A stretch of DNA of 64,000 nucleotides, taken from the sequence record EU863408; one strand, 5' to 3'. Numbering within the stretch: the first letter of the stretch is position 1; the number at the start of each line of letters is the position of its first letter. The stretch is from Escherichia phage JSE. Shown here piece by piece: positions 42,451 to 47,367 of the stretch. Made by a program: the position numbers and the translations under genes. The notes beneath the pieces are model-generated. The model saw only the letters and a list, made by a program, of their open reading frames with translations, did not search any database and had not been told where the DNA came from.

Positions 42451-44694
42451 TTACAGCTTGCAAGATGAGCACTCGCTAGCGTCTTCCGTACCATCTGCAC
42501 CGTCGCGAACGTTCGCATAATACAGGGTTTTCAGACCGTAATATTGAGCAAACAACATATCATCTAACACATCAGCAATATCGACTTTACCAGTCTTATA
42601 AGTGCTTGGATCGTATGATGTATTGGAACTAATCGCCTGATCCACAAACTTCTGCATGATCGCTGCCAGTGTGAGATAAGGCTTGTTACCTTTCTTGATC
42701 AGTGTCCAAAGCAGGTCAATAACATCAGCATTATTCTCTACGTTCGGAATAACCTGATTAAATTGCCCTTCTTTCGATCCTTTAACCGATACAATCCCGC
42801 GAGGCGGTTCAATACCGTTTGTGCTGTTAGATACCTGAGAAGACGACTCACAAGGCATCAGCGCCGACAGTGTACTGTTACGAATGCCATATTTTTTCAG
42901 GTCTTCGCGCAGTTCTTCCCAATCCATCTCATACACCGGATCAACCAGTTCATCTACTGTCTTTTTGTACCAGTCGATAGGAAGTTCACCGCGACCATAG
43001 CGTGTTTCGTGCATCAGTTCGCAAGCACCCTTCTCTTTAGCCAGTCGCACACTAGCCTTAATCAGAGCATATTGCAAGCGTTCAAACGTTTTATGCGTAA
43101 ACTCGTTAGCGTCTTCATATGTGAAGAAATTATCTGCTAGATATGATGCAAAGTTAGTCACACCAACACCCAGAGAGCGACGTTTTTTGGCTGTCAGAGC
43201 TTGTTCTACAGGATAATCCTGATAATCTAACAGGTTGTCAAGTGCACGCACCATAACCATAGCAATGCGTTCTACTTCTTCCATATTTTCGATATCGAAA
43301 TTACCTAAAACATATGCTGCCAAAGTACATAGGCTAATTTCTGAATCATCACGACCCATCGGTTTTGTAGGCAGAGCAATTTCACAACACAGGTTAGATT
43401 GTTTAATCGGTGCTACATTACGAATAAACGCCCCGTGATTGTTCATGTTGTCTGTGAACGTTGGGTAGATTCGACCAGTGTTAAAACGTTCAATTGCCAC
43501 CGCTAAAAACAGGTCTTCGGCTTTAACACGAGTTTTACGAACACTCGGATCTTTTTCCAGTTTTTCGTAAAGCTGGCGGAAACCTTCCTCGTCTCGGAAG
43601 TACAGATCCCACAACAAGCCACCCGCAACATCTGGACTAAACAGAGTAATGTAATCCCGTTTAAGGAATCGCTCTACCATCAGGTTATTAATCTGTACGC
43701 CGTAATCAAGATGACGAATGCGGTTATCTTCCACCCCCTTATTGTTCTTTAACACAATCAGACTTTCAAACTCTAAATGCCATATTGGGTAATAGAGAGT
43801 CGCCGCCCCGCCACGAATGCCGCCTTGTGAGCATGACTTAACGGCCGTCTGAAAATGTTTCCAGAATGGGATAACGCCAGTATGACGAACTTCACCATGC
43901 CCGATCTTAGATCCTTCCGCGCGAATCATGCCAGCGTTGATACCGATACCAGCACGCTTGCTAATATACTTGATGATTGCATTTGCTGTTTCGTTGATGC
44001 CCTGCAATGAGTCATCACTTTCGATCACCACACACGAACTAAATTGGCGTGTTGGGGTACGCACACCTGCCATAATCGGAGTAGGTAGAGAGATTTGCTT
44101 ATTCGCAACAGCATTATAAAAATCAATCACATGTTCAAGTCGATTTTCTGTCTCTTCTTGATGCAAGCACATACCGATCAGCATATACGCAAATTGTGGT
44201 GTTTCGATGATTTTCTTAGTGCTGCGATCCTGAACAAGATATTTCTCTTTTAACTGCATCGCACCAGCATAGGTCATTTTAAAATCAAGTTTATGGTCGA
44301 TGAATTTCTCCAGATATTCCACTTCTTCATGGGAATACTTTTGCAGAATTTCGCGATCATATTTTCCGGTTGCAATATTACGCTCAATATGGCTGTAAAA
44401 ATCAATCGGTTGGAATTGACCGTATACTGATTTGCGAAGCGCGAACATTGCAAGGTTACTTGCTACATATTGATAATCGGGTGTTTCTACAGTAATGTTA
44501 TCTGCTGCGACCTTAATCAATACTTTCTGGATATCGTTGGTAGACATACCTTCTGTCAGAAGTGGTTCAACCATATCAAACAATTCATATGGATCAACGT
44601 TATGACCTTCGGCTGCCGCTTCCAGAATTTTCATTACTTTTTCTTTTTCAAACGGAACAGTCAGACCGGAAGACTTAACAACATTTTTAATCAT
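42451..44694 (-). CDS. nrdA: ribonucleotide reductase alpha subunit
   Basis: 747 aa; ATP-cone N-terminus; class I RNR large-subunit size, adjacent to nrdB. Confidence 0.95.
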   Translation of the reverse strand: MIKNVVKSSGLTVPFEKEKVMKILEAAAEGHNVDPYELFDMVEPLLTEGMSTNDIQKVLIKVAADNITVETPDYQYVASNLAMFALRKSVYGQFQPIDFYSHIERNIATGKYDREILQKYSHEEVEYLEKFIDHKLDFKMTYAGAMQLKEKYLVQDRSTKKIIETPQFAYMLIGMCLHQEETENRLEHVIDFYNAVANKQISLPTPIMAGVRTPTRQFSSCVVIESDDSLQGINETANAIIKYISKRAGIGINAGMIRAEGSKIGHGEVRHTGVIPFWKHFQTAVKSCSQGGIRGGAATLYYPIWHLEFESLIVLKNNKGVEDNRIRHLDYGVQINNLMVERFLKRDYITLFSPDVAGGLLWDLYFRDEEGFRQLYEKLEKDPSVRKTRVKAEDLFLAVAIERFNTGRIYPTFTDNMNNHGAFIRNVAPIKQSNLCCEIALPTKPMGRDDSEISLCTLAAYVLGNFDIENMEEVERIAMVMVRALDNLLDYQDYPVEQALTAKKRRSLGVGVTNFASYLADNFFTYEDANEFTHKTFERLQYALIKASVRLAKEKGACELMHETRYGRGELPIDWYKKTVDELVDPVYEMDWEELREDLKKYGIRNSTLSALMPCESSSQVSNSTNGIEPPRGIVSVKGSKEGQFNQVIPNVENNADVIDLLWTLIKKGNKPYLTLAAIMQKFVDQAISSNTSYDPSTYKTGKVDIADVLDDMLFAQYYGLKTLYYANVRDGADGTEDASECSSCKL

Positions 44695-44761
44695 ATTACC
44701 TCACTTCATATTTTAGCAGGAACAAGTTTATCCTCCATATTGGGGGCTTTCGCCCCCTTTG

Positions 44762-45985
44762 TTATACTGCCATTTGAGCGGTGATCGCTGGATGGCTTTG
44801 ATAGTTGTGAATTTTAAAATCTTTCGGAGTCTTTGTCAATACCTCATCTAAAGATTTAAATTCCGGCAACTCAATTATTGGTTTATCAAACGGAACACGG
44901 CTTAACTGTTCCATAACTTGATCAAAATGGTTTTTGTAAATGTGGCAATCCCCACACTGATAAACCAGTTCGCCAACTTCTAATCCGCAAATCTTCGCGA
45001 TGATATGCGTTAACAGTGCATAGCTCGCTACGTTGAACGGATTCCCTAAAAAGAGATCATTCGAACGCATGAAAAATAAACAACTCAATTTGTTGTCGTT
45101 GGAAACATAAAACTGTACCATCGGATGACATACACCTAACACAGCATTATGCGTTTCCTGTACGTTCCATGAATCAATGATAATACGACGACTATATGGA
45201 TCATTCTTGATCATGTCAATAACTTTTTGTAACTGGTCTTCCCAAATCTTCGGGCGATAGACATATTCTTCATCGTCTTTAGTGCTTGATGTGTCTACGT
45301 CCATACTAACAAACATCGTGGTATCCGGTGCTATAATATCCCCACCCAGATAATCACTATCAAGCAGATAACCGAAATAACCATCATCTACCCATTCCTG
45401 GAATCCCCACAAGCAATATGCATCATTAACAAAATTAGATTGAGTCTTCCAGTGGTCTGCTACCAGAATATAATCAAACTCTTCATAACGCATACCACGC
45501 CAGATAGCACATAAACGGTCTTCTGTTTCATTGGTTGGTGTAAAGTCTTCTACCCACGGGTGCTTAAATGTATGTGTATATTTGCTCTTAACGCGCTTAA
45601 TTTTGATTTCACCGTGTGGATGAATCGGTTTTCGTCGCCATGCCATACCATACATATTACCGACATTATAACCATTGAATCGCAAGGGATTCTTTTCTTT
45701 CATATCAAGACAGTTGCCGCGCCAAATATCAAAGGCTTCCTCGTCAAACTTGCCGCGTGTAATTTCCTGTAAGCGACGGCGGTCAAGTGATCCCTCCATA
45801 AACCATAGCAATTCGCCAATTACAGAGGCTGTAGCCATCTTTTTAGTGGTCAGTAAGGGGAAACCCTTGCTTAAATCAATTCGCATTTCTGCACCGAATT
45901 TAGAGAGCGTACCTACCCCAGTTCGGTCTTCACGAGGCCAGCCATTATCAAGAACATCACGCAATAGTTTCAAATATTCTTTCAT
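44762..45985 (-). CDS. td: thymidylate synthase with roughly 120 aa internal insertion
   Basis: ThyA motifs (RTGVGT, VCHPMVQFYV, DPYSRRIII); 407 aa versus about 264-290 aa for typical ThyA/Td. Confidence 0.85.
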   Translation of the reverse strand: MKEYLKLLRDVLDNGWPREDRTGVGTLSKFGAEMRIDLSKGFPLLTTKKMATASVIGELLWFMEGSLDRRRLQEITRGKFDEEAFDIWRGNCLDMKEKNPLRFNGYNVGNMYGMAWRRKPIHPHGEIKIKRVKSKYTHTFKHPWVEDFTPTNETEDRLCAIWRGMRYEEFDYILVADHWKTQSNFVNDAYCLWGFQEWVDDGYFGYLLDSDYLGGDIIAPDTTMFVSMDVDTSSTKDDEEYVYRPKIWEDQLQKVIDMIKNDPYSRRIIIDSWNVQETHNAVLGVCHPMVQFYVSNDNKLSCLFFMRSNDLFLGNPFNVASYALLTHIIAKICGLEVGELVYQCGDCHIYKNHFDQVMEQLSRVPFDKPIIELPEFKSLDEVLTKTPKDFKIHNYQSHPAITAQMAV

Positions 45986-46226
45986 CCCACACCACCTTTT
46001 TCTTATTGATTGCTTTCTTACGCAGTTTTGCTACTGTCTCGTCAATGTCTATAAAGATAACACCACGGTCGAATACAGTTGCAGGTCTTGAGATATCGCT
46101 ATTTTCTTGCACAGGAAGCCATGATGCGCTCGCTTCATCATAGAGATATTGTAAACCGTAATAATCTACGGCTACTGCGTAGTTTTCACTGGTAGCCGTC
46201 CATAATTGAATAATACCGACTTTCAT
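45957..46226 (-). CDS. hypothetical protein
   Basis: Start placed at MKVGIIQLW, overlapping the stop of the upstream small ORF (TAATG). Confidence 0.4.
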   Translation of the reverse strand: MKVGIIQLWTATSENYAVAVDYYGLQYLYDEASASWLPVQENSDISRPATVFDRGVIFIDIDETVAKLRKKAINKKKVVWDERIFETIA

Positions 46227-46318
46227 TATTGTTCCCGTCCACAATGTAAACACCGACTACCAGCAAACATCAAAGATTCACCACAATGTTTGCACTCATA
46301 ATCTGTCAGAATTTTCAT
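46226..46318 (-). CDS. hypothetical zinc-ribbon mini-protein (30 aa)
   Basis: MKILTDYECKHCGESLMFAGSRCLHCGREQ; packed between frd stop and next start; not in track. Confidence 0.3.
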   Translation of the reverse strand: MKILTDYECKHCGESLMFAGSRCLHCGREQ

Positions 46319-46319
46319 G

Positions 46320-46901
46320 TTACGCCTTCTTACGTTCTAAAATTTGTTCGCTGATCAGGTAATCATCAAGGAAGTAATTATGTTCTTCTTTTGTTGCAAA
46401 ATCAAAATATAATTCCTGAATCATTTCCTTAGAGATACCAACATCATATTCGAACGGATCATTAATTCCTGCTCGTTGAACATATGTTAACACAATACGG
46501 TCCGCAAAGTCAACCGCTTTTTCAATCAGGGAAGGTCCACCAATAACGCTTACCAAACCTTGCAATTTCTCTATGACTTCTAATAATTCCTTCAATCCAC
46601 CATCATTAGTAATCGCGGTATACACATCTGGTTGGTCGCCGTTTTTTGCTTTCGGTGCTGGCTTACTGGTATCGGTGCTAACAACCACATTCACACGACC
46701 TTCCAGTGCTTTAGGAAGACTTTCAAAGGTATTACGTCCCATTACCACCGCCGCAAGATCAACATCTCCCATAGTGCGCATTTTAAAGTTTTCCATGTCC
46801 TTTTTGATTGGACGACCCCACGGTAAACCGCCTTTAAAACCAAAAGCCCAATTTTCATCCGACATTTTAGTGTCACCAATCGCAAATACACATTGAATCA
46901 T
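46320..46901 (-). CDS. frd: dihydrofolate reductase
   Basis: 193 aa as T4 Frd; DHFR motifs (GLPW, VVMGR.TFESL). Confidence 0.9.
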   Translation of the reverse strand: MIQCVFAIGDTKMSDENWAFGFKGGLPWGRPIKKDMENFKMRTMGDVDLAAVVMGRNTFESLPKALEGRVNVVVSTDTSKPAPKAKNGDQPDVYTAITNDGGLKELLEVIEKLQGLVSVIGGPSLIEKAVDFADRIVLTYVQRAGINDPFEYDVGISKEMIQELYFDFATKEEHNYFLDDYLISEQILERKKA

Positions 46902-46916
46902 AATATAAATCTCCTA

Positions 46917-47246
46917 TCAAACCAGCTTGAGATAGTTTTCGTTAACGTTTTCTTCTGTGATCTCGGTTTTAAACTCATTACCAACATCAGGAGAAACATA
47001 ATAGCGTTCGGAATAATCACGCCACATTTTCAGTAGGCTGACACCAACATTAACACCATTTTCCCAGAAACGGAAGATAATTTTATTTGCGGTGTAGCGG
47101 TAATCGCTTTGAATCAAGCTGCCATCACCGCGACGTGATTCATAAACCGTAATACATTCACGGTTAGCGGCTTTAAGACATTCTTCAATAGTGCCGCATG
47201 AGATAATTTCGGTTGAGTCGTTTACGATTTGTTCTACAGTCCACAT
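46917..47246 (-). CDS. hypothetical protein
   Basis: 109 aa ORF with promoter cassette at 47278-47305. Confidence 0.5.
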   Translation of the reverse strand: MWTVEQIVNDSTEIISCGTIEECLKAANRECITVYESRRGDGSLIQSDYRYTANKIIFRFWENGVNVGVSLLKMWRDYSERYYVSPDVGNEFKTEITEENVNENYLKLV

Positions 47247-47277
47247 AATATAATCCTCTCTTTGTTTCGATGTGTGT

Positions 47278-47305
47278 ATTATACATTACCACATAAGCAT
47301 GTCAA
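47278..47305 (-). promoter_or_regulatory. early promoter (TTGACA-N16-TATAAT)
   Basis: Precedes ORF 46917..47246. Confidence 0.5.
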
Positions 47306-47332
47306 CACCTTTTTCATAAATTTTTAGGCAAT

Positions 47333-47360
47333 AAAAAAGCCTCCCCGAAGGAAGGCTTTA
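47333..47360 (-). terminator. terminator after gene 32
   Basis: AGCCTTCC-TTCG-GGGAGGCT hairpin then T-run on minus strand. Confidence 0.6.
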
Positions 47361-47367
47361 AAATTCA

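Follow-up and report, generated by a model that had tools for sequence, protein, structure and literature searches.

A probable homing-endonuclease relic retained, unspliced, within the thymidylate synthase of Escherichia phage JSE

The window analysed here is a stretch of 64,000 nucleotides (nt) from Escherichia phage JSE (sequence record EU863408), an RB49-like coliphage of the genus Krischvirus, and the subject of this report is its td gene, in which the coding sequence of thymidylate synthase (ThyA) is interrupted by an in-frame insert. The surrounding gene order is the usual one for T4-type phages: upstream lie gene 32, two small open reading frames (ORFs) and frd, then comes td, and then nrdA. 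At the DNA level td is 98.9% identical to its counterpart in Escherichia phage ELT3 and 91% identical to that of RB49, and all 57 records matching it, each with a td coverage of at least 80%, belong to RB49-like Krischvirus. The parts of the gene are as follows, with positions in the protein given in amino acids (aa).

44762..45985, minus strand: td, thymidylate synthase ThyA of 407 aa, which carries the insert (ORF, PF00303 and TIGR03284).
45611..45985, minus strand: N-terminal ThyA core, aa 1-125, ending at the conserved 'YGMAWRRKPIHPHG' (= E. coli YGKQWRAWPTPDG), placed by alignment with insert-free and canonical insert-bearing ThyAs.
45257..45610, minus strand: the strict in-frame insert, aa 126-243 (E126-Y243, 118 aa), placed by homology with the canonical insert-bearing ThyAs P0022 and P0092.
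45596..45610, minus strand: N-terminal stalk strand, aa 126-130, EIKIK (predicted strand E9-13), with an 'I+R+' motif conserved family-wide.
45386..45529, minus strand: helical core, aa 153-200, 'ETEDRLCAIWRGMRYEEFD...DHWKTQSNFVNDA...FQEWVD' (predicted helices H36-54, H60-72 and H78-83).
45305..45370, minus strand: degenerate beta hairpin, aa 206-227, 'YLLDSDYLGGDIIAPDTTMFVS' (strands E89-92 and E107-110, no helix after them).
45251..45265, minus strand: C-terminal stalk strand, aa 241-245, YVYRP, through which the chain returns to ThyA (strand E124-128).
44765..45256, minus strand: C-terminal ThyA core, aa 244-407, with the SRR phosphate-binding arginines, the active-site Cys in 'VLGVCHP', 'RSNDLFLGNPFN' and the C-terminal 'AQMAV' (PF00303 positions 110-266).

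The td ORF runs over 407 aa without an internal stop. Its product is matched by PF00303 (E=1.1e-82, 277.6 bits against a cut-off of 24.3) and by the NCBIfam equivalog TIGR03284 (275.1 bits, cut-off 108.35), in both cases as two separate stretches around the insert, the C-terminal PF00303 stretch (aa 250-407) corresponding to profile positions 110-266. Solved ThyA chains in the PDB align only at aa 1-86 and 250-407; in these alignments D250 is equivalent to D110 of E. coli ThyA, and the C-terminal part aligns to E. coli residues 110-264. The motif set checked comprised the DRTG arginine, the YGxxWR tyrosine, SRR, the active-site Cys-His, RSxD, the PFN asparagine (dUMP specificity) and the C-terminal carboxylate segment, and all of these catalytic and substrate-binding motifs are found (DRTG, NMYGMAWR, YSRR, GVCHP, MRSND, NPFNVASY, GDCHIY and AQMAV). 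Judged from its sequence, the td product is a genuine ThyA whose core is broken between WR117 and D250, which agrees with the first-pass annotation of this DNA in its account of a 407-aa ORF with ThyA core motifs.

Between R117 and D250 the window protein has 132 residues, against 5-36 in insert-free ThyA homologues. The annotation had described roughly 120 aa without counterpart in E. coli ThyA and had proposed alignment with other ThyAs as a check. The segment holds up, and the extra length is a single block rather than many small indels, so that the alternative of short indels spread along the protein fails. The edges of the insert were set from P0022 and P0092, in which 'WRxWxTPDG' precedes it and 'RxxIxDQ' follows it, and the insertion point falls inside a hairpin that in E. 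coli ThyA reads WPTPDG followed by RHIDQ. We take this hairpin to be a surface feature, and where the inserted domain would sit with respect to the active site and the dimer interface is presumed from what is known of ThyA. In the window the junctions read ...HPHG followed by EIKIK and ...YVY followed by RPKIWEDQ, and the pattern 'YV.RP.I..DQ' at the C-terminal stalk is conserved in nearly all insert-bearing ThyAs. The span of 45250-45655 given originally covers the insert but also includes about 45 nt of ThyA core on the 5' side. Since the insert is found in all 57 Krischvirus td genes, it is not an artefact of assembly or annotation.

Searching with the window insert by tblastn returned, beyond the Krischvirus copies, larger inserts at the same ThyA site in phages KP13-7, phiKp_21, D181 and D148. 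The ThyAs of the Klebsiella jumbo phages KP13-7 and phiKp_21 are 517 aa long (E=8e-12), those of the Vibrio phages D181 and D148 are 477 aa long and annotated as 'HNH endonuclease', and the inserts of KP13-7 and D181 share both junction motifs with the window. A search of a large protein collection with whole Td yielded more than 40 metagenomic ThyA clusters of 401-613 aa with an insert of 127-274 aa at this same site. The genomic contexts examined, all of them phage-like, comprise a T4-like contig of 169 kb with frd-td-nrdA, a contig of 25 kb, and a jumbo contig of 308 kb that carries dihydrofolate reductase and dCMP deaminase. With the insert alone, an exhaustive phmmer search gave 11 matches, ten of them full-length proteins of the size of insert-bearing ThyAs (406-525 aa) and the other, P0128, a 288-aa fragment; a word-indexed protein search, limited by its index, gave none.

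The long inserts have five segments in common, namely an N-terminal stalk strand (1), a beta-rich module ending in 'GVGYLG' (2), a nuclease-like module of the form 'LYxxWxxMxxRCY...VCxRWxxFxNFxxD...LDKDYxGxxxYSPxTCxF...N' (3), a helix-turn-helix (4) and a C-terminal stalk strand, 'YVxRPxIxIDQ' (5). They match PHROG families annotated as HNH endonuclease, phrog_2081 at 1.8e-33 (the KP13-7 insert), phrog_953 at 1.5e-25 and phrog_374 at 1.8e-20, these names being annotations rather than tested functions. One long insert carries PF22083, I-HmuI_NUMOD-like (1.2e-7). In addition, the insert profile retrieves free-standing proteins that lack ThyA; in these, an AP2 or an I-HmuI NUMOD-like domain comes after segments 2 and 3. 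Across the long inserts and the free-standing relatives, conservation of LDKD reaches at least 90%. Because of the PHROG matches, PF22083 and these AP2- or NUMOD-bearing relatives, the insert family is identified as an I-HmuI-like homing-endonuclease module. The window insert alone matches phrog_2081 weakly (E=0.067), and its link to the HNH families is transitive, through the KP13-7 insert (8e-12, then 1.8e-33). When both insert alignments were run as profiles against PDB sequences, only chance-level matches came up; the link to I-HmuI is structural only.

We also noticed that the insert has led to misleading labels on ThyAs that bear it, among them 'HNH endonuclease' in D181 (L002:2141-3574) and 'hypothetical protein' in phiKp_21 (L003:1955-3508) and in phages Whisky, Cognac and Brandy.

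A model of the window insert was computed with AlphaFold2 from the family alignment, together with one of the full insert of a relative, P0134. The window model is a compact domain (predicted local distance difference test, pLDDT, 92.6; predicted template modelling score, pTM, 0.85) with a terminal strand at each end, three helices and a beta hairpin that no helix follows. It thus answers the structure prediction proposed in the first-pass annotation, and the insert is predicted to be an independently folding domain. The helical core is homologous to the family part 'LYxxWxxMxxRCY...VCxRWxxFxNFxxD', and its W45, W62 and F68 are invariant in 19 aligned inserts. The hairpin at aa 206-227 is the counterpart of the two strands of a beta-beta-alpha motif; in the P0134 model the same two strands are followed by a helix (126-135). 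In a Foldseek search of BFVD, the best matches of the window insert are insert-bearing ThyAs and phage proteins of about 200-250 aa, including ones named homing endonuclease and I-HmuI-like NUMOD-like domain protein.

Set against the long inserts, the window copy retains segments 1 and 5 and, in reduced form, segment 3, while segments 2 and 4, the DNA-binding modules, are gone. Where the long inserts have LDKD it reads LDSD, and 'MDVDTSSTKDDEE' takes the place of the Asn-bearing helix. The beta-beta-alpha-metal fold is absent, as are the HNH general-base His and the metal-ligand Asn/His of the helix. This state has parallels across the 41 insert-bearing ThyAs compared: inserts of at least 194 aa nearly all have [LIV]DKD[YFI] and are basic (isoelectric point, pI, 7.7-9.5), whereas those of 192 aa or less lack the motif and are nearly all acidic to neutral, the sole exception as to the motif being P0128, the truncated fragment mentioned above. 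The window insert has a pI of 4.85 and a net charge of -10 overall and -13 in the core, and on these values it would be very unlikely to bind or cut DNA. The earlier suggestion of a remnant of an invaded mobile element is thus supported: long inserts at the same site are homologous to HNH homing-endonuclease families and to AP2/NUMOD proteins, and the window copy is truncated, without the motif and acidic.

At the level of the family, the insert is distributed sporadically at one conserved site, and its distribution is incongruent with a neighbour-joining tree of the ThyA cores (without support values). One large clade of that tree, which includes Krischvirus and the KP13-7 group, is wholly insert-bearing; insert-bearing P0022, P0035, P0040, P0042, P0085 and P0134 are placed among insert-free ThyAs. 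For P0022, P0035, P0042 and P0085 the nearest relatives are insert-free and share 66-73% core identity, closer than any other insert-bearing ThyA. Identities of core and insert in pairs of proteins compare as 69% vs 34% (P0007/P0017), 54% vs 59% (P0007/P0008) and 48% vs 51% (P0035/P0134). This scattered, incongruent pattern points to past mobility and is what would be expected had inserts passed from one thyA gene to another separately from the cores.

ThyAs of the large all-insert clade also differ from the canonical protein outside the insert, with an active-site loop 'NAVLG(V/I/M)CHP' in place of 'MALPPCH' (td aa 270-285, ~45131..45178, minus strand) and 'RFNGYNxGNMY' in place of 'GDLGPVYG' before the WR motif.

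Selection within Krischvirus was estimated from nine td genes as the ratio of nonsynonymous to synonymous substitution rates (dN/dS), with the N-terminal core (aa 1-117) and the last 57 codons (aa 351-407) as flanks. The ratio is 0.25 for the insert, 0.044 for the N-terminal core and 0.067 for the last 57 codons: the insert is under purifying selection, 4-6 times more relaxed than in the two flanking core segments.

Two further kinds of variation were seen in these genes. Inside the insert there is a 4-aa indel (SEYN; ~45467..45475, minus strand, td aa ~171-172), with 'EEFDSEYNLFLVADHW' in RB49 and Skers against 'EEFD----YILVADHW' in the window and most others, in a stretch that is the counterpart of an eroded 'RCYNPxxxxxSY' loop of the long inserts. 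Directly downstream of the insert, a patch at td aa 252-356 (44918..45232, minus strand) exists in Krischvirus as two very divergent alleles, one shared by the window and Skers and another by RB49, Phi1, JK32, E26 and others. The alleles are 47-84% identical in nucleotides with synonymous divergence saturated, against 93-100% identity in the remaining td, and the td of GoldenSnicker is a hybrid of the two whose breakpoint lies near aa 282. The start of the patch coincides exactly with the insert's 3' junction, and the patch covers SRR, the active-site Cys loop and RSxDxFLGxPFN, a region corresponding to the one where T4 td carries its intron and I-TevI site. It looks like gene conversion from a divergent td, and it possibly reflects escape from homing endonucleases or a footprint of co-conversion.

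Taken together, we consider it probable that the insert descends from an HNH homing-endonuclease module of I-HmuI-like type and is now a fixed relic without catalytic activity, lodged in frame in the ThyA hairpin and not spliced, the whole 407-aa polypeptide being the working enzyme. Several points weigh against this reading. The tree of ThyA cores is rough and midpoint-rooted, and the hits on which it is built are a biased sample. Krischvirus shows no presence/absence polymorphism; the insert is fixed there, so nothing points to recent mobility in this lineage. An exapted functional domain would likewise be expected to give a dN/dS of 0.25 and a fold predicted with very high confidence. Furthermore, no Pfam HNH model matches the window insert, the long inserts or the free-standing relatives, the only Pfam matches on inserts being I-HmuI_NUMOD-like and HTH_psq, each in single members. 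No family member, whether long, short or free-standing, has the canonical HNH general-base His; LDKD, ERID or DRRD stands instead, with an Asn further on in the LDKD consensus. With neither that His nor a Pfam HNH match, nuclease activity is no more than putative even for the long forms.

The explanation with which the relic competes most seriously is exaptation, in which the insert would serve as an accessory domain with a function of its own: either it would offer an acidic surface for protein-protein contacts, by which Td is docked into the phage complex synthesising deoxynucleoside triphosphates or onto another phage or host protein, or it would regulate Td activity. The constraint on its sequence, the compact and confidently predicted fold, and the marked shift to negative charge all favour such a role, and so does its retention, both in every one of the 57 Krischvirus genomes and in the relatives P0003-P0006, which are 51-61% identical. 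The same constraint, however, might equally stem from the need to avoid misfolding an essential enzyme, and it is 4-6 times weaker than in the flanks. The SEYN indel is polymorphic among close relatives, the graded and independent truncations from 274 to 127 aa fit erosion rather than design, and no partner or activity is suggested by the sequence. Selection and fold allow exaptation, but it has no specific support; we regard it as the main rival and as unlikely. That the window insert is instead a site-specific endonuclease still homing into empty td alleles appears extremely improbable. Its fold is related to HNH-type nucleases, and the divergent patch starting at its 3' junction superficially resembles a co-conversion tract; but LDKD is altered to LDSD, the helix of the beta-beta-alpha motif and both DNA-binding modules are gone, the charge of the domain is strongly acidic, and the alternative frames hold no ORF of more than 41 aa inside it and none of more than 70 aa that overlaps it. 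As the insert is fixed throughout the Krischvirus genomes, the genus offers no remaining target.

Splicing was weighed in the same way, in the form of a read-through group I intron or a non-canonical intein whose removal would leave a normal ThyA of about 290 aa. T4 td is well known to carry a group I intron. The phage genes of nucleotide metabolism are, moreover, frequent hosts of introns and inteins (PMC2988022). Against an intron, an Rfam scan of 44000-47000 gave no family match even at E<=1, the frame is open over 118 and more codons, amino-acid conservation of the insert in the ThyA frame extends to unrelated, distant phages at about 30% identity, and its dN/dS in the host frame is well under 1; on these grounds a group I or group II intron was ruled out. 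An intein was ruled out as well, as a Pfam scan of td found no Hint or intein domain and the junctions of the 19 aligned inserts have no conserved Cys/Ser/Thr nucleophile and no His-Asn. Both verdicts had already been given, from the open frame and the residues at the boundaries, in the first-pass annotation, and they stand. Nor does the site agree with that of the T4 td intron, which lies in the RSxDxFLGLPFN region rather than after WR. Because the insert folds alone, and leaves and re-enters ThyA through a two-strand stalk, splicing of RNA or protein is not needed. We give a self-splicing element hardly any credence.

For the favoured relic, the following course of events is proposed. An I-HmuI-like module would once have entered, in frame, the surface beta hairpin after the YGxQWR motif (E. 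coli ~101-109), where the loop varies naturally in length. The ancestral full-length insert may have had about 245-275 aa, with a beta-rich DNA-binding domain, a helical and beta-beta-alpha nuclease-like domain and a NUMOD-type helix-turn-helix. We infer that the full-length chimera recognised the uninterrupted, highly conserved thyA of phages infecting the same cell and promoted homing, in which the insert was copied into these alleles, and that in the Krischvirus lineage the element became fixed and was then eroded by in-frame deletions to a minimal self-folding core. The relic is probably kept as only a near-precise deletion would restore a functional hairpin, an imprecise one harming an important enzyme; the occupied site would probably also remove the target for active relatives. 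More tentatively, and at somewhat less than even chances, the long ThyA inserts of about 245-275 aa may constitute an undescribed class of homing element, in which an I-HmuI-like endonuclease is an internal, permanently retained domain of an enzyme and the chimera attacks the insert-less thyA of competing phages. In the literature searched, which lies outside the subscription journals and includes a review of T4 mobile elements, the paper on five T4-like genomes and a survey of jumbo phages, we found no description of an endonuclease insert in td or ThyA.

The closest relatives in structure and architecture are the I-HmuI-type HNH homing endonucleases (the intron-encoded SPO1/SP82 enzymes; PDB 1u3e) and the free-standing AP2-HNH/NUMOD enzymes. 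Unlike these, the ThyA insert is an internal domain of its host enzyme, without a gene, intron or intein of its own; the catalytic His is replaced (LDKD) throughout the family, and helix, motif and DNA-binding modules have disappeared from the window copy as well. In concept, the nearest precedent is the ShiLan domain, a homing insertion that interrupts a DNA methylase of mycobacteriophage and is not spliced (PMC11855218, PMC9957025). Both sit in a phage enzyme gene whose frame stays open, have no features of introns or inteins, are predicted to be retained as a protruding structure and show a disjoint, homing-like distribution. The HNH of ShiLan, however, is read in a frame other than that of its host gene (PMC11855218), whereas the endonuclease-like domain here is in the ThyA frame; furthermore, the host gene here encodes an enzyme of an essential pathway, and the window copy is a decayed relic. 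An out-of-frame HNH ORF of the ShiLan type was considered for the window and rejected, as the other ORFs overlapping 45257..45610 are only 20-70 aa long and the longest inside the insert has 41 aa.

Inteins with homing-endonuclease domains resemble the ThyA insert in being in frame at a conserved site of a nucleotide-metabolism enzyme and in decaying to 'mini' forms after fixation, but they differ in having a Hint domain and junction nucleophiles, which the insert lacks, and it is predicted to stay in the mature protein. The T4 td group I intron with I-TevI has the same host gene and phage superfamily in common with it, as well as the invasion of a conserved td coding segment by a mobile element; the T4 element, by contrast, acts at the RNA level, splices and has a separately expressed GIY-YIG enzyme, and no ribozyme is detectable at 44000-47000 here. 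Thymidylate synthases also have lineage-specific loop insertions, such as eukaryotic insert 1, which is short and at the same place, and the small-domain insert of L. casei. These span a mere 8-50 aa, do not form domains of their own and are not known to share homology with mobile-element proteins, unlike the ThyA insert; shared with them is the tolerance of the loop after YGxQWR to changes in length, as the 5-36 residues of insert-free homologues illustrate.

The neighbourhood of td has several features of its own. A 98-aa ORF (45957..46253, minus strand; phrog_16012, 1.3e-59, function not known) overlaps the td start by 29 nt and is annotated in every Krischvirus relative examined. A second copy of the module was sought in the window by tblastn with 26 family members and rejected: only the td insert was found, together with a weak match (E=0.006) of this ORF to one long ThyA insert, treated as chance because the PHROG to which the ORF is assigned is an unrelated one. 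RB49 carries a 485-aa ORF, RB49ORF239c, between gene 32 and the ORF238c/frd block that the window lacks (47247..47367 in comparison with L004:247-1704 of RB49), and phage E26 has an additional small ORF between td and nrdA; these indels represent presence and absence of possible mobile genes around the nucleotide-metabolism cluster. A weak DUF723 match has been reported for RB49ORF239c (PMC1524935). Within td, just downstream of the insert junction, a sequence at 45191..45219 (minus strand) matches the sigma-70 consensus at 11 of 12 positions (TTGACA-17-TATAGT); it is probably a chance occurrence, as the region has 6 such sites against 5.3 in shuffles.

In the window itself, the feature is a fossil of modest functional consequence. 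It accounts for RB49-like Td being about 120 aa too long, and for the 'HNH endonuclease' and 'hypothetical protein' labels on some insert-bearing ThyAs, and it marks a site in ThyA that tolerates the insertion of a domain. To our knowledge, homing endonuclease genes are thought to persist in essential genes only inside self-splicing introns or inteins, or else between genes. The insert family would add a third route, in which a domain able to fold by itself enters a permissive surface hairpin and splicing plays no part. Invasion, fixation and decay would be readable in a single protein, in forms that range from inserts of 274 aa to the Krischvirus relic of 118-132 aa, and, should the long inserts indeed be a homing class, the truncation series from 274 to 127 aa would display the full cycle without splicing machinery. 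The family would also offer candidate site-specific nucleases directed against the highly conserved thyA sequence.

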